Virus record (IMG/VR): IMGVR_UViG_3300042334_001734
Span: 1-25,960 of that record
Direction: 5' to 3' (one strand)
Source: a virus
Taxonomy: Duplodnaviria > Caudoviricetes
DNA length: 25,960 nucleotides
The notes under the pieces are model-generated. The model was not told the DNA's origin. It saw nothing but the letters and a program-made list of their open reading frames with translations, and searched no databases. Shown here piece after piece: positions 14,953 to 25,960 of the stretch (positions are counted from its first letter, which is position 1; the number at the start of each line of letters is the position of its first letter). The position numbers were made by a program, and so were the translations under genes.

Positions 14953-15738
14953 ATGATTAATCGAATTATTCTTGTGGGGTGTTCACATAGTGCTAATTCT
15001 GGATTTACTGAACAAAACAGTCATAAACATTATCCTAATCTTTTAAAAAAACAGACTGGATGCGACGTTATTAATTTGTCAATCGGTGGTATGAGCAACC
15101 ATGAAATTTTTTTAAGGGCGGTGGAGTACATTACAATAAGTGACATTAATGAACATGATGTTTTATTAGTGCAGTGGAGTTGTTTACATAGAATATGGGT
15201 GTATCAACAAGATAATAATGTTGACAACTTTACCCAAGTATTACCTCACCCAAGTGGACTCAATCCAGATTTAGCATGGCCGTTGTATAAGACCCATTCT
15301 GCTTATTATTGCAATGATTACATGGCACTAAAATTTTGGTTTGAATATATGATTTCTCTACAAGCAGTATGCAAATTAAAAAATATTAACTATGTATTTG
15401 TAAATGGGTCTAATAATTTAGTCGACAAATTGAATGTTTATCGTAATCAAACTATTACTTCATTAGAAAATATTAATCTTTGCGAAAATTTAAGGAAAAT
15501 ACTTGATTTTGATAATCGGGATGATTCGTACATATTACAGAAACTAAACATTCTTCTTGGTCTATATAACCAACTTGATTTTAATAATTGTTTAAAATTT
15601 GGAGCATTTTATTTTGGCCAAGCTGAATTGGATTTGTCAGATGATAACAGACATTTTGGAGAGCAGTGTAATCTACTTTGGGCCGATGAGATTCTACATC
15701 ACCTAGATAGAAATTGCCAGTCTGATTGTAATTTATAA
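14953..15738 (+). CDS. SGNH/GDSL hydrolase-like accessory protein
   Basis: 261 aa. Block I ILVGCSHS, NLSIGGMSN, VQWS and C-terminal DNRHFG (DxxH). Confidence 0.7.
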   Translation: MINRIILVGCSHSANSGFTEQNSHKHYPNLLKKQTGCDVINLSIGGMSNHEIFLRAVEYITISDINEHDVLLVQWSCLHRIWVYQQDNNVDNFTQVLPHPSGLNPDLAWPLYKTHSAYYCNDYMALKFWFEYMISLQAVCKLKNINYVFVNGSNNLVDKLNVYRNQTITSLENINLCENLRKILDFDNRDDSYILQKLNILLGLYNQLDFNNCLKFGAFYFGQAELDLSDDNRHFGEQCNLLWADEILHHLDRNCQSDCNL

Positions 15739-16779: not shown

Positions 16780-16976
16780 GTTGGCGATCAGTGCAATTAA
16801 GCAATGACTTGTGTGAGCAAGATCAATTAATAGTAAATTTGTGCAAAGAAAACTTGGTAAACTATGTTGGTACAGACGCTAAGTTTGCACAACTTTTACA
16901 TTGTTACCCGTTGGCTACTAATTTAGTGTCAACAATCCAATTTAAAATTAAAAATCCTGATGCTAATACCAATTGA
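16776..16976 (+). CDS. Short hypothetical protein, possibly a truncated remnant
   Basis: 66 aa. ATGA-coupled to the gp47 stop and overlaps the next ORF by 17 nt. Confidence 0.45.
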   Translation: MSWRSVQLSNDLCEQDQLIVNLCKENLVNYVGTDAKFAQLLHCYPLATNLVSTIQFKIKNPDANTN

Positions 16977-17829
16977 TTTTGTAGCGGGCACTCATGGCCA
17001 CTTTTTAGAAGTAGTATTAAATAATTTTTTTAACACTGCCGCACCAACTCTGGACCCCTTTAACTCACTTGGTGCAAGTCACAAAGTTAATTCTAAATAT
17101 TTAAACTCGAGGATATTTGTGGCCCAACATTGGTTTGAAGATCCTAGTGATCGGTTGTCTCAATTTAATCGTGCAATTTCTATACAATTTGATCAGGACG
17201 ATTTATTATTAGTATCGTCGGTGAGCTTATTACGAGCTGGTGATCAAGGACTTGATAACAATCAATTAGAAATTAATACTTATTCTAAACTTAGTAACGA
17301 TTTTTATCAAGAGATGTTAGTAGAAATTTTAAATGCATACCCAAATGTTGATACCGGCAGCGGCTCGATTCCTAGAAACATTTTAAGAGAATTTTTTAAA
17401 TTTGGGTTTTCAAATCCAAATATCAATGGCTATTGGAAAAAACAACAACAAATGCACTATACAATGCCGGTGTTTATATTTAAATTTAAAGCATTTTATA
17501 ATTATAATTTGTTTGTTGATACTTTAAAAAAATTGCAAAATTTTATAGAAATACCTTTTAAATTCGATAGTAATCTCGAAATGCTACACAAAAAATTTCT
17601 AACTTTAATACCATATATTGGTCATAAGGTGCAGTGCGATAATATTATATCGGCTATCCAACGAGGTCAACCACAACGCATTCCTTCGTTGACACTGTTT
17701 CAAGAAAGTTATATTAATGGCCAGTTAGAAAATATTTACAAAAAAGAGATGCCATTTCATAACCTAACCTACTTTACATCTACAAAAGATGTGTTACAAT
17801 ATTTAGAAACTCGGGCACCTAATCTATGA
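16960..17829 (+). CDS. Hypothetical accessory protein with sulfotransferase-like N-terminal loop
   Basis: 289 aa, AT-rich. N-terminal IPIDFVAGTHGHFLEVVL strand-loop-helix. Sits between gp47 and gp46. Confidence 0.6.
   Translation: MLIPIDFVAGTHGHFLEVVLNNFFNTAAPTLDPFNSLGASHKVNSKYLNSRIFVAQHWFEDPSDRLSQFNRAISIQFDQDDLLLVSSVSLLRAGDQGLDNNQLEINTYSKLSNDFYQEMLVEILNAYPNVDTGSGSIPRNILREFFKFGFSNPNINGYWKKQQQMHYTMPVFIFKFKAFYNYNLFVDTLKKLQNFIEIPFKFDSNLEMLHKKFLTLIPYIGHKVQCDNIISAIQRGQPQRIPSLTLFQESYINGQLENIYKKEMPFHNLTYFTSTKDVLQYLETRAPNL
17773..17800 (+). promoter_or_regulatory. Putative sigma70-type promoter for gp46 inside the upstream ORF
   Basis: TTTACA, 16-nt spacer, TG-T-TACAAT; same geometry as the promoter at 14001. 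Confidence 0.5.
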
Positions 17830-19589
17830 TCCATATAAAAAATCTAACCGTTAAAAACTTTATGAGTGTAGGTAACAGCACACAAGCGATTGGATTTGAT
17901 CGTAAAGACCTTACGCTGGTTTTAGGTGAAAATTTAGACCTAGGTGGTGATGGAAGTCGCAATGGCACAGGCAAGACTACGATTATCAATGCTCTTAGCT
18001 ATAGTCTATATGGACAAGCACTTAGTAATATCCGTAAGGATAACTTAGTCAACAAGACTAACAATAAAAATATGTTAGTCAGTTTGGATTTTAGTGTTGG
18101 TGATAAAGATTATCGAATTGAACGTGGTCGTAAACCTAACTTGTTAAGATTCTTTGTAAACAATCAAGAGCAAGAAATTACAGACGAGGCACAAGGTGAC
18201 AGTAGAGAAACACAAGATGCTATTGAACATACGCTAGGACTTAGCCACGATATGTTTAAGCATATTATGGCGTTAAACACGTACACAGAACCTTTCTTAA
18301 GTTTAAAAGCCAACGATCAGCGAACTATTATTGAGCAGTTGCTTGGTATTACTTTGTTATCAGAACGTGCTGACAAGATTAAAGAACAAAATCGTGCTAC
18401 TAAAGATGGAATTACTCAAGAAGAATTTCGTATTCGTGCGGTGCAGGAGGCTAACAAGCGTATTGAGGAACAAATCGACGCACTGAAACGCAGACAAGGC
18501 ATGTGGACAACTAAACATGAAGAAGAGAAAACAAAATTTGAGACTGCGCTGGCAAGCCTCAAAGAGATCAACATTGAATCTGAAATTGAGGCGCATAAGG
18601 CGCACGAGGCTTGGGATCAGCGCAGGAAAGATATCAACGAACTATCGAGCGCAATTAGTCGGGCAAAACTTGATAAGGACCGAGAGACAAAGGCCGTGGT
18701 CAAGCTGGAGAAGGAAATTACTTCTCTCATCGATCATACATGCCATACATGCGGCCAGGCCTTTCACGATCAAAAGCACGAACAGGTACTGGCGGGTAAA
18801 CAGGAAGATTTGGCAACAGCTAGAACAGCAAGCCAGGAACACACACAACTCTTATCAGAGTTGGAGACTGCCGTCGAAGCCTTGGGGACGCTAGGTAAGC
18901 CTCCCAAAACATTTTACGACAAAGAAGAGCAAGCAATTCAACATCGTGCTAATTTATCAAACTTAGAAATACAGTTGGTTACCAAGACAGCAGAAGTTGA
19001 TCCGTATATTGAACAGATTGAGGACATGCAGAATCAGGCCTTGCAGGAGGTTAATTATGATACACTTAATGGACTTAGTCGTTTACAAGAACACCAGGAA
19101 TTCTTACTCAAGCTACTCACCAGCAAAGACAGTTTTATCCGAAAAAAGATTATTGAACAAAACCTCAGCTATCTGAATGCTCGCCTAACACACTACTTGG
19201 ATCGTATTGGCTTGCCACATACTGTAGTGTTTCAAAATGACCTGAGTGTTAGTATTGAAGAATTGGGTAGAGAGTTAGACTTTGATAACCTGAGTCGCGG
19301 TGAACGTAACAGACTAATTTTAAGTATGAGCTGGGCATTCCGAGATGTATTTGAGAGTTTATATCAACCAATTAATGTATTATTCATTGACGAAATGATT
19401 GACAACGGCCTAGATACACAGGGCGTTGAATCGGCATTGGCATTGTTAAAGCAAATGAGCCGTGAACGACACAAGAGTATTTGGCTAGTAAGTCATAGAG
19501 ACGAGCTGGCTGGTCGTGTAGAAAATATCCTTAAGGTTGTTAAAGAAAACGGCTTTACAAGCTATAACACAGATAGTGAAATAGCATGA
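17826..19589 (+). CDS. gp46: Recombination ATPase subunit, gp46/Rad50/SbcC-like
   Basis: 587 aa. Walker A RNGTGKTT, coiled coil with zinc hook CHTC, signature LSRGE, Walker B LFIDE and H-loop VSH. Confidence 0.95.
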   Translation: MIHIKNLTVKNFMSVGNSTQAIGFDRKDLTLVLGENLDLGGDGSRNGTGKTTIINALSYSLYGQALSNIRKDNLVNKTNNKNMLVSLDFSVGDKDYRIERGRKPNLLRFFVNNQEQEITDEAQGDSRETQDAIEHTLGLSHDMFKHIMALNTYTEPFLSLKANDQRTIIEQLLGITLLSERADKIKEQNRATKDGITQEEFRIRAVQEANKRIEEQIDALKRRQGMWTTKHEEEKTKFETALASLKEINIESEIEAHKAHEAWDQRRKDINELSSAISRAKLDKDRETKAVVKLEKEITSLIDHTCHTCGQAFHDQKHEQVLAGKQEDLATARTASQEHTQLLSELETAVEALGTLGKPPKTFYDKEEQAIQHRANLSNLEIQLVTKTAEVDPYIEQIEDMQNQALQEVNYDTLNGLSRLQEHQEFLLKLLTSKDSFIRKKIIEQNLSYLNARLTHYLDRIGLPHTVVFQNDLSVSIEELGRELDFDNLSRGERNRLILSMSWAFRDVFESLYQPINVLFIDEMIDNGLDTQGVESALALLKQMSRERHKSIWLVSHRDELAGRVENILKVVKENGFTSYNTDSEIA

Positions 19590-20029
19590 TAGTAGATCTT
19601 GTTAACCGCGTTCCGGTTGCTTCGTGTAAAAGTTTATTTTTGTCTAAGTTGCATAACAAAAACCAGTTGCCGCAATATCAAGATTTTTGTACCATAATAT
19701 CCAATAATTTAACCACAGCATTAGTCATTAACGACGGGTATTGCTCGTTAGCAGAACTAGATAAAAAAATTATTATAGCCAGTCAATCCGTTACACACTA
19801 TTTTTATCTGGCTATAAACAAGTTTTACATTTATTCTGACATAGATCTAGATATTAGTCCTACACAAGATTATGACTCACTGTTAGTCGACCACTGTTAT
19901 AATTTAATTAAGGATCAATTTGAATTAGTTAGTTCCTCTATTCGGTTAGATGATCACGGACAACTAGGTAATTTTGTCCATCCTGTAACTACAATGGTTT
20001 TAAAACGACATGACAAAACTTCAAATTAG
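19586..20029 (+). CDS. Hypothetical accessory protein
   Basis: 147 aa, AT-rich, ATGA-coupled to gp46. Confidence 0.6.
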   Translation: MIVDLVNRVPVASCKSLFLSKLHNKNQLPQYQDFCTIISNNLTTALVINDGYCSLAELDKKIIIASQSVTHYFYLAINKFYIYSDIDLDISPTQDYDSLLVDHCYNLIKDQFELVSSSIRLDDHGQLGNFVHPVTTMVLKRHDKTSN

Positions 20030-20504
20030 AAGGTTAAAAAGCCATTACCTTAGCCGGTGGGCGGTTATGAGACACAATCAAAAAAATCAAAAGAAAATTT
20101 TGGTTCTAGAGGATCAGTTTGTATTAAGGAATTTAATACCTGGATCAACTTTATGTTATAACTGCTTGGGAGAAATATATCAAGGTATGATTGATTTATC
20201 TCCCAGAGACAAATATGACAATTTGGTGTTAATTAATAATATCGAATTTATTAATTTAACCGTTGATCAAACCAATGTATGGATAGAAAATCTCGCCAAT
20301 CAATTTTTGAAACCAGGCGGAAAAATTATTGTAAGTTTAGAACATAAATTTATAATTTATAACCGTGTAGAGATATCAGTTAACACATTAATTTCAACTT
20401 GGTTTACAAATTCAAACAGATTGAAGTTAACAAAATTTTTAAATTTATTAGGTAAAACAAACCCAGGATATGGTGATTATTTTTTTTGTATAGATTATGT
20501 TTAA
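20010..20504 (+). CDS. Hypothetical protein, possible degenerate SAM-methyltransferase fold
   Basis: 164 aa. KYDNLVLIN and FLKPGGKIIVS resemble class I methyltransferase C-terminal motifs, but no clear GxGxG motif I is present. Confidence 0.5.
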   Translation: MTKLQIRRLKSHYLSRWAVMRHNQKNQKKILVLEDQFVLRNLIPGSTLCYNCLGEIYQGMIDLSPRDKYDNLVLINNIEFINLTVDQTNVWIENLANQFLKPGGKIIVSLEHKFIIYNRVEISVNTLISTWFTNSNRLKLTKFLNLLGKTNPGYGDYFFCIDYV

Positions 20505-21363
20505 TATAATAATTCTGTATTGGGAGCCCGGTAGTGGGGGAGATTTTATTCAAAGTTTGTTGCTGTCCGACAATCAGTATCGTGGTGTTGTAACCAATTT
20601 TAATTTTACCGACTCAGGAAGAATTAGTCCTACCTTAGATTTATCATTTAAAGAGTTGTTTGAATCAAACTTGTGGTATTTTAAAGAATGGTCTCATGAA
20701 GATTGTTGTACATTGGCTGATATTATCAAGGCAGAAAACATTACTCAATTTGTGATTCCGACCCATAGGGTTGATCAAATTTCTGTTTTACAAAAATATT
20801 TTTCTAACAGTGTTTCAGTTGGAATAACATATCCAGAAAATATGTTTCCTATAGTTTTAAAAAATTGGTGTAAAAAAGTTGCGCAGACCGATTCGTATCT
20901 TGGTAAAATTTATAATCAACCTGTTCATCAATATTTAAAAAATAATAACGTCTTCGGAGAATTTGTGTTAAAAGAACAACTTAGATTTGGGACTAGACTT
21001 CGCACTTCAGTAGAAGATGTATTTGATGTTGCTATTTCTTTGGAGAAATTATATCTTGCCGATCTGTCTGATATCCATTTGTTAATTAGTGATCAGTCAA
21101 CAGTATATGATAATGTACATAGATGGTTATCGGCCCAGGGAGAGATTCAACAATATTGTTTTACAGTACATACAAATTTAAAAGACGCAATAGGATATAA
21201 TTCTAAAGCAGTTATCGCTGGTAAGTCAACCATCAAGTTGGATAGTTTTGACAATATATTAATAAAAGAATATTTTTTAAAAAATACCTTAATTAAAAAT
21301 GTGCCAATTTTTAAAACTTTAAAACAGGCAGACACTTTTTTAACAAGCGAGCTTGCGGTATGA
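20497..21363 (+). CDS. Hypothetical accessory protein with sulfotransferase-like N-terminal loop
   Basis: 288 aa. IIILYWEPGSGGDFIQSLL resembles the PxSG loop of P-loop sulfotransferase folds. Confidence 0.6.
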   Translation: MFNIIILYWEPGSGGDFIQSLLLSDNQYRGVVTNFNFTDSGRISPTLDLSFKELFESNLWYFKEWSHEDCCTLADIIKAENITQFVIPTHRVDQISVLQKYFSNSVSVGITYPENMFPIVLKNWCKKVAQTDSYLGKIYNQPVHQYLKNNNVFGEFVLKEQLRFGTRLRTSVEDVFDVAISLEKLYLADLSDIHLLISDQSTVYDNVHRWLSAQGEIQQYCFTVHTNLKDAIGYNSKAVIAGKSTIKLDSFDNILIKEYFLKNTLIKNVPIFKTLKQADTFLTSELAV

Positions 21364-21376
21364 TAACTACTAGTCC

Positions 21377-21817
21377 ATGGTATGGCTTTACGAAAACAAA
21401 CAAATCGATGTTTTGCCCGAAGAGTGCGTTGGTTTTGTATATTTGATTACAAATAACTTAACCGGTAGGAAATACATTGGAAAAAAATTAGCAAAATTTA
21501 GTAAGACAACATATAAAACAATAAAACTTAAAAACGGCAACAAAAAACGCAAGAAAATCAGAAGCAAAATCGATTCAGACTGGCAACTATACTACGGATC
21601 AAGTCCGGAATTAACAAAAGACATAGAACAACTAGGACCAGGCAACTTTACTCGCGAAATATTATACTACTGTAGGTCTAAATCCGAATGTAGTTACATA
21701 GAAGCTCGCGAACAATTCTCAAGACGTGTATTAGAAACAGATGATTACTACAACGGGCACATACAAGTACGTGTACATGGTAGTCATATAATTAAAAGAA
21801 AAAATGATAATGAGTAA
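21377..21817 (+). CDS. Stand-alone GIY-YIG family nuclease with basic insertion
   Basis: 146 aa. GFVYLITNNLTGRKYIGKK (GIY...YIG), YYGSS, FTREIL, a candidate catalytic Glu in YIEARE and Asn in YYNG. Confidence 0.8.
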   Translation: MVWLYENKQIDVLPEECVGFVYLITNNLTGRKYIGKKLAKFSKTTYKTIKLKNGNKKRKKIRSKIDSDWQLYYGSSPELTKDIEQLGPGNFTREILYYCRSKSECSYIEAREQFSRRVLETDDYYNGHIQVRVHGSHIIKRKNDNE

Positions 21818-22631
21818 AGTAATTTTTGCTGGATGTTCGTTTACTGCCGGAAGTGGGTGGGACGAACTCGGGGTTGTTGAACAATGTAAAAATTCTCCAA
21901 ATTTATGGGTCAATTTGTGTTGTGATCAAATTGATCAGTTAAAAAATTTAGAACTTGTAAATTTAGGAAAGGGCGGTGCATCTAATTCAGAAATATTTAC
22001 AATTGTAACACGAGCAATTGCAGAGTCTCGGTTTGATATTAGTATGCTTTTTTGTCAATGGACCGGCATGCCAAGATATAATTTTAGTGTTGGATTTGAA
22101 CTTTGGCCTACTACTGAACAACTATCACCAACTGCCCGATCTAAATTTGATGTCAATTTAAATCGTGGGGATAAGTGGACTAGAAAATATTTAGATGATT
22201 TATTAGACAGATTATTAGTATTGCATCATCTGCATCACGAAATTGTCAAGGTTGTAGAATATTCTAATATTTTACAAAAATTGGCTAAAGAATTTAATAT
22301 TAAATTATTTTTTATTAACGGACTATGCCCGTGGGACCAAGATTACTTTGTTAGATTACCCGGAGCCATGCCAGAACAATTTACATCATTTACTAAAAAA
22401 GAAATACTGAATATTGAATCACGCAACGACGAAGACATTTTTAAACTTTATAACATAATGCATGCCGACTATGAGTTAGCCGGCGGTATTGATGCTACTA
22501 ATTGGATCAATTTATATGATTCATTCCTTAAAAATAAAACAGATTTAAATTTTGATAAGATGCATCCAGGCACCCAAAGCAACCAGCATTACTTCCATCA
22601 AGTAAAAACATTTTTAGAAAATCAACAGTAA
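21804..22631 (+). CDS. SGNH/GDSL hydrolase-like accessory protein (paralogue of 14953-15738)
   Basis: 275 aa. IFAGCSFT, NLGKGGASN, CQWT, FFING and DKMHPG. Confidence 0.7.
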   Translation: MIMSKVIFAGCSFTAGSGWDELGVVEQCKNSPNLWVNLCCDQIDQLKNLELVNLGKGGASNSEIFTIVTRAIAESRFDISMLFCQWTGMPRYNFSVGFELWPTTEQLSPTARSKFDVNLNRGDKWTRKYLDDLLDRLLVLHHLHHEIVKVVEYSNILQKLAKEFNIKLFFINGLCPWDQDYFVRLPGAMPEQFTSFTKKEILNIESRNDEDIFKLYNIMHADYELAGGIDATNWINLYDSFLKNKTDLNFDKMHPGTQSNQHYFHQVKTFLENQQ

Positions 22632-22632
22632 G

Positions 22633-22974
22633 GCATTAATCCGCTATGTTTGGTCTAGGTAGCTAGACTTGCAAGGAGGAACGGTGAAATACCCGGTCCG
22701 GATAATCTTGTGTGCGAAAGGCAATTGCTAACTTAAGGCAACAAATGGTTTGGGCTCCGTTGAAAAAGATACGACTCATGCTTATAGGACTTGGATTTAT
22801 TGTCGGGTCACTAGGGTTCCGTTGATTTGTGAAGCTAGAGTAAGGGGTACCGGTCAACCGCCTCTGCGTAGAAATACAATCTCTTTATAATAAATGACTG
22901 CTGTCACTCGGATAATGTGTCAAGGTCAATTCACCGTGACACGGTGAATTGTGACCACATAATCTGGATAATGC
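22633..22974 (+). ncRNA. Candidate large structured non-coding RNA (~340 nt), family not recognised
   Basis: No credible ORF. The 5' GCATTAATCCG (22633-22643) pairs with the 3' TGGATAATGC (22965-22974). Multiple stems with GNRA/UGAAA loops, an 11-bp perfect hairpin at 22927-22951, a possible pseudoknot, and a downstream terminator. Confidence 0.65.
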
Positions 22975-23013
22975 GTAAGAAAAACAATCATGTCTGAGTG
23001 TAACGAAAGACAT

Positions 23014-23035
23014 AGATTAGCGTAGCTAATCTTTT
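23014..23035 (+). terminator. Intrinsic terminator-like hairpin
   Basis: AGATTAGC-GTA-GCTAATCT (8 bp) followed by TTTATTA, at the end of the plus-strand operon. Confidence 0.6.
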
Positions 23036-23135: not shown

Positions 23136-23468
23136 CTAGAACGTATCGGGCCAATCTCTAAACAAGGCATGTTGTATATCTCCACTAACAAACTGATTGA
23201 AACTTTTGTGTTTGACTTCTAGTTCTCCTTCTAACGGAGCAACCCTCTTAAAGGCACTGTCCATCTGCGCCATGTCTTTAAATTCCATTAGAATCATCCA
23301 TTCGGGCATGTCGGCGATACTACGGAAGCCCATCTTACAACGAGTAATTCTGTAGGTTTCCATTTTGCCCTCACTAATTAACTGTTCAAAGAAACTTTTC
23401 ATGCCGTTGACCCAATCTAAGTCCGAAATGTCGCCTTCTTTGTTTGCCCATATAGTGTAGAGATCCAT
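23136..23468 (-). CDS. Small dimeric alpha-beta barrel-like protein (DUF6614-like)
   Basis: 110 aa with AAGGA RBS. YRITRCKMGFRSIADMPEWMILMEFKDMAQMDSAF and terminal ALFRDWPD. Family recalled from the motif, not searched. Confidence 0.65.
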   Translation of the reverse strand: MDLYTIWANKEGDISDLDWVNGMKSFFEQLISEGKMETYRITRCKMGFRSIADMPEWMILMEFKDMAQMDSAFKRVAPLEGELEVKHKSFNQFVSGDIQHALFRDWPDTF

Positions 23469-23506
23469 TATTTTATCCTTGAGTAATAATATACATATAT
23501 AATTAT

Positions 23507-24187
23507 ATGAAAATAAAGTTTGATCATAATTTTGGCCAACAAGAGCAAGGCGAGTTTTTTCATTTCCGTTGCGAGCTCATTGATGTTGAATTGATAGAAC
23601 ACAATGCAGCTTTAGAAATGGGTTTTTTACAAACCATACGAAATAATCAAATACGCTGGTATCAAAGTCGTAGCACAAGAGTAGCAGTTGCTAACACCAA
23701 TTACACTATATTGGATACTGCTTGCGAATTAGTAAATCCTACTGCTAGTCAGTTTACAGAAATGGATCATATCTATACTAGCTATTGCTATTATAAAAAA
23801 TTTAAAAAATATTTTGAAGTAGGGCAACGTCTAAGCGGTGATCGTTTTATTGCCTACTACCATGATGACATTTTTGTAGCATGGGCCAAACTGCGCCATT
23901 ATTCACCACAGGCTATTGAAACGTGTTTGTTTGTATGGGATTATAGTTTACCGGCCTCTCGCCTAGGGTCACGTAGTCTAGAACATGAAATTGCTTGGGC
24001 TAAACAACAAGAGTACGAGTATGTTTATTTAGGCCCAGGATACGAAAAAAGTTCAATTTACAAGGCAGAGATACAGGGCTTTGAGTGGTGGAACGGTGAT
24101 GTTTGGTCCCAAGATGTAGATCAATATGTTTGGCTGTGCAAACGTGATAGTAAAATTAAGTTGCCCGCGGATCTTTACGGTGTTTGA
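23507..24187 (+). CDS. Aminoacyl-tRNA-protein transferase-like protein (ATE1/Bpt GNAT fold)
   Basis: 226 aa. FVWDY...RLGSRSLEHEIAWAKQQEYEYVYLGPGYEKSSIYKA matches the ATE C-terminal pattern (LG..S...EI..A......Y.YLGY......M.YK). Confidence 0.7.
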   Translation: MKIKFDHNFGQQEQGEFFHFRCELIDVELIEHNAALEMGFLQTIRNNQIRWYQSRSTRVAVANTNYTILDTACELVNPTASQFTEMDHIYTSYCYYKKFKKYFEVGQRLSGDRFIAYYHDDIFVAWAKLRHYSPQAIETCLFVWDYSLPASRLGSRSLEHEIAWAKQQEYEYVYLGPGYEKSSIYKAEIQGFEWWNGDVWSQDVDQYVWLCKRDSKIKLPADLYGV

Positions 24188-24665
24188 ACAAAGCCTGTAA
24201 GTAATCTTCGGGCCAAGTATCATAAAAGCCCTGCTTGGCAACAAGTTGGGCTTTTTCATTTAGGTCCGTTAGGCTCTGTACAAGTGCCAGTGCATACGTG
24301 CCTTGATTCATGCTAACACCGTTAACAATTTCTTGATCCCCAGGATGATCCTCTAAAGCCAGCAAATCGTTTTGTAGCAATGCTTCTTCGTTAGCAGCTT
24401 TAATGTCGCTAGTAAATTGTGAATAAAAGAATTCGTCGGGATTGTATGCAAGTATTAACACACTTTTGCCACTTAGTCCGTCTCTGGCAACATTAAGAAG
24501 GTCAAAGTAGGGATTAACTCCTACCCTAACTGTAAAGTCCTGATCTAGCCTGGCCTTGCGAGCATACGGACAAGGGGGCCAACCGCCTAGGGCAGGATGG
24601 GGGACTTCCACAAAAGTCTCTATCCAGAGTCCTATGTGATATTTTACGGTATCTAGGTCTAACAT
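24156..24665 (-). CDS. Hypothetical protein, DUF1415-like
   Basis: 169 aa. WIETFVE...PPCPYARKA and EDHP resemble the CPFA/FHP motifs of DUF1415. Overlaps the convergent transferase gene by 32 bp. Confidence 0.6.
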   Translation of the reverse strand: MLDLDTVKYHIGLWIETFVEVPHPALGGWPPCPYARKARLDQDFTVRVGVNPYFDLLNVARDGLSGKSVLILAYNPDEFFYSQFTSDIKAANEEALLQNDLLALEDHPGDQEIVNGVSMNQGTYALALVQSLTDLNEKAQLVAKQGFYDTWPEDYLQALFKHRKDPRAT

Positions 24666-24669
24666 ATTT

Positions 24670-24858
24670 TCAGAAAAACGGGAGGCCCGACTTTTTAGTG
24701 GTCTCTAAATTGTCTTTGATTAGGTCATTCAATGATTTACGCTCGGCTGTGCTAAGGTGCAAGGCCTGGGCATAGCTAACGCCACCTCGCATGTACCAAG
24801 ACATTTTTAACGCCTCTTGCCTGATTGTATCTGTTTCTTTTTCCATCTGCTCGATCAT
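24670..24858 (-). CDS. gp51-like baseplate/tail assembly protein; probably also the -1 frameshift extension of the upstream gene
   Basis: 62 aa. SWYMRGGVSYAQALHLSTAER. The frame stays open upstream to the slippery site at 24900-24906, and there is no clear RBS. Confidence 0.65.
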   Translation of the reverse strand: MIEQMEKETDTIRQEALKMSWYMRGGVSYAQALHLSTAERKSLNDLIKDNLETTKKSGLPFF

Positions 24859-24884
24859 TTCTGTAATCTGATCAGAGCTTGAGA

Positions 24885-25718
24885 TCAGGAGGCGGATTCG
24901 AAAAAACTGGACATATCCAGAGTAATCAACTGCTCATACTTGTGATGGCAGTCAGGGCAGTTAAGTTTAAGTGGTTGCATTTCGCTTTTGGCTTTGAGCT
25001 CAATAATTTTATCGCGTATGCGATTAAACAAGTTGCGGTCACAGTTTTTCAAAAATTCAGTGATGTATTCGGGCTCACTGACCAAGGCAGTGGGAGTTTT
25101 AATAGCGCCAATGCTCTGGGCTAGTGAATGCACAGTAAGTTCTGTTACTTTTTTTAACGCAGCGCCCAATGCTGTCATTTTGTCAGATTCAGGAAGATCA
25201 GCTTCGCCTAGAGTTTGCAAAAGTTTTTGTTGCTCAAATTGTACCTGATTGTTGTCATTGAGATTTTTATAAGTCATGGGCCGTAAAAAGATTTCCATAT
25301 CCCCGGCCGGTATGCATTGACTGTAATCGGGTTTTTGAATTTGATCCAACACATGTCGTAGATCGCATGTAAGTTCTGTAGTGTTCTGACAGGCCGGGCA
25401 AGTAGATGCCAGTTCCATTTCATGCCCGTAGCTGGCGATTCTAATGCCGATTAACACAGTATCTAAATCGGTGGACGGAATTTCCCATGCATTTTTTATA
25501 TTAGGCACACAACTTTGTATAACATTAATGGTTGCACTGCCGTTATATAATGCATCAGGAGTTCGATAGGTTATTTCATCAATAGCAGTCATGGGCAATA
25601 CCGGTAACTCTTGGTTAGCAGGCATGTCTAAGGCACCCGCAGGATAGTGTTGTCCTTGGCTGGGAAGTTTGATATAGATGCCGGGTTGTCTAAAATACTG
25701 ACTTAAAGGATTGGTCAT
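24885..25718 (-). CDS. gp26: gp26-like baseplate hub assembly / tail assembly chaperone
   Basis: The true start is probably MTNPLSQYFRQP at 25718 (277 aa). IKLPSQG, PMTAIDE, DLDTVLIGIRIASYG, two CxxC motifs (CPAC, CPDC) and terminal SSFF. Confidence 0.8.
   Translation of the reverse strand: MTNPLSQYFRQPGIYIKLPSQGQHYPAGALDMPANQELPVLPMTAIDEITYRTPDALYNGSATINVIQSCVPNIKNAWEIPSTDLDTVLIGIRIASYGHEMELASTCPACQNTTELTCDLRHVLDQIQKPDYSQCIPAGDMEIFLRPMTYKNLNDNNQVQFEQQKLLQTLGEADLPESDKMTALGAALKKVTELTVHSLAQSIGAIKTPTALVSEPEYITEFLKNCDRNLFNRIRDKIIELKAKSEMQPLKLNCPDCHHKYEQLITLDMSSFFESAS
24900..24906 (-). other. Putative programmed -1 ribosomal frameshift heptamer T TTT TTC
   Basis: agT TTT TTC gaa in the correct codon phase. 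The -1 frame reads FFRIRLLISSSDQITE directly into MIEQMEK with no stop. Confidence 0.65.
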
Positions 25719-25727
25719 TTTTTCACC

Positions 25728-25751
25728 ATAAATAGATAGTACACTACTTAT
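25728..25751. promoter_or_regulatory. Pair of putative late promoters for the two divergent genes
   Basis: ATAAATA on + (25728-25734) upstream of the tape-measure ATG, and ATAAGTA on - (25751-25745) upstream of the gp26-like ATG. Confidence 0.5.
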
Positions 25752-25764
25752 CGGCGCATAAAAC

Positions 25765-25960
25765 ATGGCTTTAGAAAACGAAGAAGAACTACAACGAGCA
25801 ATGGCAGAGCTAACCAGGTCTATGCAAGGACTTGGTACTGACACCGCTGTTGCCGACAATGAATTAACCAAATTTTCCAAATCAGTATCATCTGTAGGAT
25901 CCGCCATGGCCGGAGCTGCTGGCCAAGTAATGAAGGGCGGAAGCGCATTTTCGTCACTCA
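25765..25960 (+). CDS. Probable tape measure protein, N-terminus (runs off right edge)
   Basis: MALENEEELQRAMAELTRSMQGLGTDTAVADNELTKFSKSVSSVGSAMAGAAGQVMKGGSAFSSL is helical and Ala/Gly/Ser-rich, and is divergent from the chaperone-like gene. Only 65 codons are visible. Confidence 0.55.
   Translation, partial: MALENEEELQRAMAELTRSMQGLGTDTAVADNELTKFSKSVSSVGSAMAGAAGQVMKGGSAFSSL

Follow-up and report, generated by a model that had tools for sequence, protein, structure and literature searches.

A conserved, ornate RNA of jumbo phages with matched twin repeats and a DNA-type hairpin tail: a candidate primer RNA for R-loop replication origins

Introduction

Between converging operons of an uncultured T4-like jumbo phage lies a stretch of some 340 nt with the appearance of a large folded RNA. 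What kind of RNA is this, and what might it do for the phage? The window in which it was found, a genome fragment of 25,960 nucleotides, had been the subject of a sequence-only reading that proposed a possibly new class of phage non-coding RNA acting as a ribozyme, a nuclease scaffold or a replication primer. Replication initiation in jumbo phages is largely an open field. We here describe the structure, distribution and relatives of the RNA and weigh the explanations for its unusual 3′ part.

Results

Genomic setting and distribution

On the plus strand of the window, a late sigma factor gene, gp47, gp46, a SegE-like GIY-YIG gene (21377..21817; PF19835, E 7e-32) and an inserted ORF of 275 aa follow one another toward the RNA, and minus-strand genes converge on the locus. 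The GIY-YIG gene is the usual upstream neighbour of the RNA and is separated from it here by the inserted ORF. Its product had no PDB match by sequence or Foldseek, and the predicted model is poor past residue 110. AT-rich ORFs without family matches (14953-15738, 16960-17829, 19586-21363 and 21804-22631), two of them with SGNH-like motifs, are placed between the conserved gp55, gp47, gp46 and GIY-YIG genes; cargo insertion thus has a hot spot in this operon. At 23136-24665, a cassette composed of a DUF6614 gene, an ATE_C-like aminoacyl-transferase gene and a small conserved gene adjoins the baseplate hub (gp26-like) gene, which is followed by a 62-aa gp51-like ORF (24670-25907).

Near-complete related genomes measure about 345 kb and carry full tRNA sets, a permuted tmRNA and the RNA element in one copy. 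Their two-piece permuted tmRNA genes were located at G001:110821-111310, G002:287900-288233 and G004:166863-167268; the tag encoded in G001 is unusually long and ends in EALAV. In agreement with the sequence-only reading, neither covariance models nor ARAGORN matched a tRNA, tmRNA, RNase P RNA or group I or II intron in the window. RF00010 is absent from five related genomes, and reverse transcriptase (PF00078) occurs in none of these five, two of which are near complete; a retron- or DRT2-type template RNA was dropped on the latter ground. Readings as RNase P, group I or II intron, tmRNA-like ORF, C/D-box or TIGR RNA were also dropped because the characteristic motifs of these RNAs are missing.

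Homologues were gathered through the GIY-YIG protein, and 70 of 80 such loci carry the RNA. The remaining ten comprise four without downstream sequence and six with a third body, type C. The collection comprises 128 distinct full-length copies, 49 of type A, to which the window belongs, and 79 of type B. Pattern scans of IMG/VR led to estimates of about 980 and about 1200 further stretches. In GTDB, the pattern scan returned 121 loci, three of which proved real by HMM, two with the GIY-YIG gene; these are probably phage contigs in bins. Searches of cultured phages with blastn gave no match to type A and only chance matches to type C. Across the family, three or more complex 5′ bodies are exchanged in front of a common 3′ core.

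Structure of the RNA

Among the 128 distinct homologues of types A and B, about 16 helices including two pseudoknots are supported on the plus strand. The type A structure contains 77 pairs, with 94.6% of cells paired across the 49 copies as compared with 35-47% in slid controls. Double-sided changes occur at 39 of the 77 pairs, a number reached in none of 500 shuffles, which ignore relatedness. Variable pairs contain G-U rather than A-C combinations, which supports the plus strand, as had been suggested from the letters alone. Folding energy by itself is weak evidence for an RNA: in the single window sequence it gave a z-score of −1.6 on the plus and −3.1 on the minus strand. A first covariance model (R1) with only 7 pairs was discarded. 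The comparative data thus support a conserved, ornate phage non-coding RNA on the plus strand.

With boundaries inferred from helix P1 and the second repeat copy, the RNA extends over 22641..22974 and consists of the type A body and the common 3′ core. The 5′ domain (22642..22716) is formed by P1 (22642-44/22714-16), a P2 hairpin and P3 with a T-loop-like cap at 22682-95, all backed by covariation; it is the portion exchanged between types. A covarying region at 22725..22782 (helices 6-8) follows, with a hairpin at 22726-40 and P5, whose A-rich cap lies at 22758-73. The loop of the next stem-loop (22785..22813; helices 9 and 10) engages in pseudoknot 1 with 22887-95, and equivalent covarying pairs are present in type B. 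The most conserved core (22820..22884) contains pseudoknot 2, an enclosing helix (22837-40/22881-84) and the core hairpin (22843-65). In pseudoknot 2, which joins 22821-25 to loop 22854-58, all five pairs are kept in 123 of 126 sequences through seven sequence variants. The joint alignment of the A and B cores covaries as well. Downstream lie repeat copy 1 (22895..22918, with a variable 7-mer at 22910-16), a covarying hairpin (22928..22950), repeat copy 2 (22952..22974, 7-mer at 22966-72) and two tail hairpins, all on the plus strand.

All sequence elements listed in the sequence-only reading lie where it placed them, and most of its helices held up. Covariation bears out the T-loop-like stem, the CGT/ACG stem at 22758-73, the bulged core hairpin, the GTA-GAAA-TAC hairpin (22868-77) and the hairpin claimed at 22927-22951, now placed at 22929-49. 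The claimed pseudoknot (22795-803/22887-95) is paired in 88.8% of cases, with double changes at four of five pairs, and the hairpin GTCTAG-GTAG-CTAGAC (22653-68) is real though varying, being 62% paired in one register. Two helices had to be given up. The proposed closing stem (22633-43/22965-74) belongs to the minimum free energy fold of the window. Of the 49 homologues, however, only 8 can form such a duplex at −6 kcal or better, and the 3′ side of the stem coincides with repeat copy 2. The other, TGC-GAAAG-GCA, clashes with the covarying P1. The second pseudoknot, the twin repeats and the hairpin tail (22990-23032) had escaped that reading.

Some loci show peculiarities at the RNA boundaries. 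A short unit containing AGGCA is tandemly duplicated at the 5′ boundary in L090 and L131 (in both just 5′ of the RNA) and in L435, and such words might be binding or processing sites. In L141, a divergent RNA body adjoins a Vsr/HNH-like endonuclease gene with helix-turn-helix repeats. Directly 5′ of the RNA, a sigma-70-like promoter was read by eye in L154 and L401, both of which are copies without a GIY-YIG gene; in the window, such promoters are not enriched (six sites versus 7.0 in shuffled sequence).

Relation to the Polynucleobacter-1 motif

The Polynucleobacter-1 RNA motif was described by Weinberg et al. in 2010 (PMC2864571). Its Rfam model RF01718 (gathering threshold 37 bits) matched the 5′ end of all twelve type B loci tested, at 82-122 bits, in place of the type A 5′ domain. 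It found nothing in the window, neither at gathering nor at E ≤ 10, in five other type A loci, in twelve loci of other or variant types, or in five Rak2/PA5oct loci. An HMM seeded with type A finds type B, and both belong to the same larger RNA by 3′ core and position. The published motif makes up the first 140 nt of type B, which occupies the same genomic position as type A; the model comprises neither core, pseudoknots, repeats nor tail. As RF01718 is found in every type B locus and in no type A locus tested, the body in the window, judged by these matches, is sister to a fragment that Rfam lists but does not explain.

This bears on the claim of a new class. Type A itself is without an Rfam match, since the window gave nothing at gathering and four chance matches at E 0.5-5. 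The claim is nevertheless too strong for the RNA as a whole, because type B opens with RF01718 over 140 nt and has its 3′ core in common with type A. Our literature searches, with most subscription papers out of reach, returned no description of the full-length RNA, its repeats or a function. What is new here is the identity rule of the twin repeats.

Twin repeats

In every type, a hairpin flanked by two repeats closes the element. The repeats contain a 7-mer that follows CTC in copy 1 and TCT in copy 2 and varies between phages at up to five positions, giving 15 or more variants. Within an element, by contrast, the two copies agree: 262 of 267 distinct pairs have identical 7-mers, as compared with a mean of 32 and a maximum of 47 after shuffling, or 71 when shuffling is confined to one type. 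The scan patterns fixed several repeat positions; in a scan that left the inner five bases free, 78 of 79 pairs, included in the 267, were identical. Along the type A tree, 20 changes of variant are counted where six would be the minimum; recombination may have added to this count.

Deviations from identity are directional. In each of the five exceptions, copy 1 reads G where copy 2 reads A. At position +10, G/A (copy 1/copy 2) was found 168 times and A/G never (expected 58); at +11, T/C was counted 42 times against five C/T (expected 31). Such one-way differences would be tolerated if RNA of copy 1 paired with the template DNA of copy 2. In the same hybrid, the fixed differences at positions 0 and +2 are C-A mismatches; there the opposite pairing fits better, as it does for many pairs at −3/−2. 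Partial identity of the repeats reaches −2 and +11, +12.

Partners for the 7-mer were sought elsewhere. The variant tracks no residue of the GIY-YIG or DUF6614 proteins, the only two neighbours covered (best mutual information 0.35 of about 1 bit). No anti-repeat inside the RNA appeared among the top 45 covarying column pairs of each type. Four genomes contain no third orthologous repeat site, apart from one synonymous coincidence in G001 and G002 only. The spacing of the repeats is continuous from 47 to 79 nt, with no helical phase, and the loop between them occurs in both orientations. Copy 2 is likely to be the 3′ end of the mature RNA, because a look-alike in phage PA5oct, ncRNA004, ends at its own copy 2.

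A DNA-type hairpin tail

Beyond copy 2, the window carries tail hairpin 1 (22990..23013), with an AT-rich stem, a GA/GA mismatch and a GTA loop, predicted to be a single-stranded DNA element, and tail hairpin 2 (23014..23032), with a cGTAg mini-hairpin loop. In 110 of 132 loci, the 170 nt that follow copy 2 contain a plus-strand hairpin of the form cGN(N)Ag, as compared with 2 of 591 control windows. Among 285 loci, this hairpin was found in 214, a motif of GA-stem-loop-GA type in 246 and a matching minus-strand element in 169. The loops are GTA, GAA, GCA and GTTA. ColE1 has the same motif, with GA-GC-loop, at 1332 on its RNA II strand. This is 136 nt past the origin, at the primosome assembly site. 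Mini-hairpin loops such as GTA and GTTA are reported to be far more stable in DNA than in RNA and to be present at the priming sites of G4, St-1, alpha3 and ssiA (PMC13037366).

Combining repeat-hairpin-repeat with a mini-hairpin, a scan blind to the family had the RNA locus as its sole match in G001, G004, G005 and the window and recovered 12 of 14 Rak2-type copies. It missed the copy in G002 and PA5oct, and G002 gave two other matches instead. These, at 122944 and 160706, lie on the strand opposite to most genes and may be chance or unrelated elements.

Related elements in cultured phages

At the syntenic spot, phage PBECO4 has an 836-nt gap whose sequence matches 82 phage records, mostly at four to five places each. 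Such Rak2-like cultured phages carry four to five copies of an element per genome as opposed to one in the relatives of the window. In 24 copies from five genomes, the order is that of our RNA: pseudoknot 2 partner and loop, enclosing helix, pseudoknot 1, twin repeats, hairpin and tail. Partner and loop of pseudoknot 2 show compensatory variants, a TG-extended −10 often lies just upstream, and the syntenic copies have no GIY-YIG gene. The repeats match in 22 of 24 copies, and both exceptions are G/A, with only two of six bases free to vary. In Munch and EJP2, with five copies each, paralogues carry different, self-matched repeats, which favours matching in cis. A short insert motif, GATCC/TTGC-GTCCAAAATTT, recurs at different positions in several variable stems of Rak2-type loci (L614-L643).

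Model scores for these elements are weak, though exact in position. The top 12 matches of the A+B-core model in 97 kb were all placed precisely on cores of Rak2-type (9 of 24) and type C (3 of 4) elements, at E-values of 0.002-0.14, and the A2 profile HMM did not find the Rak2-type copies (best E 0.3).

In PA5oct, ncRNA004 is transcribed, with a published 3′ end at 246734, RNA-seq ends being approximate (PMC7318152). Two direct 6-mers flank a hairpin there, and the published end coincides with the final base of the second; the tail motif follows 57 nt on, and the tail hairpin recurs in the syntenic gap of PA5oct (near 76.5-77.2 kb). The element shares the order of core, repeats, hairpin and tail with the Rak2-like elements and our RNA; its tie to the latter is one of architecture, as the covariance model does not find it. 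Atu_ph07 has no such element at the syntenic spot, and our searches found no published function for the PA5oct or Rak2-like elements.

Discussion

Of the functions offered in the sequence-only reading, the replication primer is the one that we favour; the nuclease scaffold is weakened, and the ribozyme found no support. We propose, giving the idea an even chance of being right, that the element is a ColE1-RNA-II-like primer RNA that seeds an R-loop replication origin of jumbo phages. Fold, repeats and tail are established by the comparisons above; that the element is transcribed, and all that would follow from this, we infer. Repeat copy 1 would be exposed by the folded body. While RNA polymerase moves through copy 2, copy 1 RNA could base-pair there with the DNA template over about 9 bp (+3 to +11), a pairing in which rG-dT and rU-dG wobbles would be tolerated, and so seed a persistent hybrid. 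The displaced plus strand might then fold its cGN(N)Ag hairpins, on which a helicase or primase would load, and an RNase H-type cut close to where copy 2 ends would provide the 3′-OH primer.

Features expected of an R-loop origin are visible in the sequence. An RNA stretch able to re-pair with the downstream template is indicated by repeat identity and one-way wobble, and a single-strand signal on the displaced strand by the hairpin tail. A transcript running into the origin would be required as well; observed are the plus-strand RNA fold and, in PA5oct, transcription of the look-alike. Several points speak against the proposal. The G/A exceptions, seven with the two of Rak2 type, are few and not independent. 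Cumulative GC skew does not turn at the locus in G001 and G002, where skew follows gene strand. An RNase HI-family gene occurs in PBECO4 and GAP32 and in none of G001-G003. The mismatches at positions 0 and +2 and the copies missed by the family-blind scan belong here too.

A different explanation, in our view unlikely though it must be taken seriously, is that of a free ornate RNA which works at a distance from its own gene as a scaffold, decoy or ribozyme, with repeats kept alike by local templated mutation or symmetric non-Watson-Crick contacts and a tail that terminates transcription where genes converge. A primer would indeed seem to need less than three or more exchangeable 5′ bodies of such complexity, and partial repeat identity out to −2 and +11, +12 is what conversion tracts would give; conversion, however, would be expected neither to preserve the CTC/TCT difference within the tract nor to yield G/A exceptions in one direction alone. 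As to the tail, operons converge at the element in the window, hairpin 2 scores terminator-like there on both strands, and at least five A in the preceding 8 nt at 79 of 163 loci are compatible with a minus-strand terminator. On the other hand, only 8 of 163 tail hairpins have a plus-strand U tract, 49 of the 70 loci followed by a co-directional gene retain the tail, and just one of 66 other terminator-like hairpins in G001 and G002 has a tail-type loop. A terminator role is thus possible on the minus strand and fits poorly on the plus strand.

The RNA might also be guide or activator of the adjacent GIY-YIG nuclease in an OMEGA-like ribonucleoprotein. OMEGA systems pair a guide RNA with a neighbouring nuclease gene of RuvC/HNH type, and their RNAs (HEARO/omegaRNA, TnpB reRNA) are likewise large and pseudoknotted. 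Here, 152 of 162 RNA-first loci have the GIY-YIG gene upstream at a distance of up to about 1.4 kb, even where its identity drops to 50%, copy 1 is at most 420 nt from its stop codon in 102 of 119 while other neighbours vary, and the protein has a predicted long basic beta-hairpin. We nonetheless consider such a partnership very improbable: no variable guide was found, nor is the nuclease an obligate partner, as ten of the 162 loci have the RNA without the gene. The scaffold is further weakened because Rak2-type copies stand alone, with promoter-like sites of their own and no GIY-YIG neighbour, and because four cultured T4-like GIY-YIG homologues, followed by gaps of 148, 28, 0 and 87 nt, leave no room for the RNA. 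Unlike OMEGA RNAs, moreover, the present RNA has no Rfam match (type A) and a single core locus, and its neighbour is GIY-YIG instead of RuvC/HNH. The nuclease could possibly be a helper at the origin.

Finally, the repeats could be iterons, DNA binding sites of a phage initiator at an origin where transcription merely opens the DNA. Direct repeats around a palindrome with an AT-rich tail resemble iteron origins, at least two tandem A(A/G)GC(A/T) words stand at the 5′ boundary in 34 of 102 loci versus 6 of 96 controls, the inter-repeat loop occurs in both orientations, and T4 oriE has direct repeats (PMC3016281). Binding sites would hardly explain the continuous spacing without helical phase, the coexistence of different variants within one genome, or the near absence of mismatched pairs although variants differ by one base, which makes iterons rather improbable to our minds.

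Returning to the primer RNA, we extend the proposal more tentatively, with somewhat less than even confidence: a widespread family of ornate primer RNAs might define the origins of Rak2/PA5oct-related jumbo phages, the body placing the copy 1 guide on the template of its own twin as a self-addressed R-loop seed of free but matched sequence, with Polynucleobacter-1 as one interchangeable 5′ domain. If true, an orphan Rfam motif from 2010 would gain a function, single-copy freshwater and marine elements would be united with the multi-copy elements of cultured phages, and the twin-repeat rule would offer a sharp genetic test in phages growing on laboratory E. coli, such as the Rak2-like phage of record OR545507, for which MG1655 is given as host. 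What triggers the persistent hybrid is called speculative for ColE1 (PMC5043065) and an open question for T4 (PMC3016281).

Leading strands primed from R-loops are known from T4 and ColE1 (PMC3016281, PMC5043065, PMC4412123). T4 oriF and oriG share with the present element a T4-like phage as carrier, several copies per genome, a location near transcription-strand switches and, on our proposal, a transcript as primer (PMC3016281); they differ in that a promoter and an AT-rich unwinding element suffice, with no conserved RNA structure. Another counterpart of the proposed primer is RNA II of ColE1/pMB1. There is no sequence homology, the mixed-sequence twin repeats stand in place of the G tracts of ColE1, antisense RNA I and Rop have no equivalent seen here, and priming by the phage RNA is a proposal. 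In both cases, however, a long folded transcript contains a stretch that pairs, or would pair, with the template for a persistent hybrid (rG with dC in ColE1), a displaced strand serves, or could serve, for helicase loading, and a GA-GC-loop hairpin motif follows downstream on the same strand.
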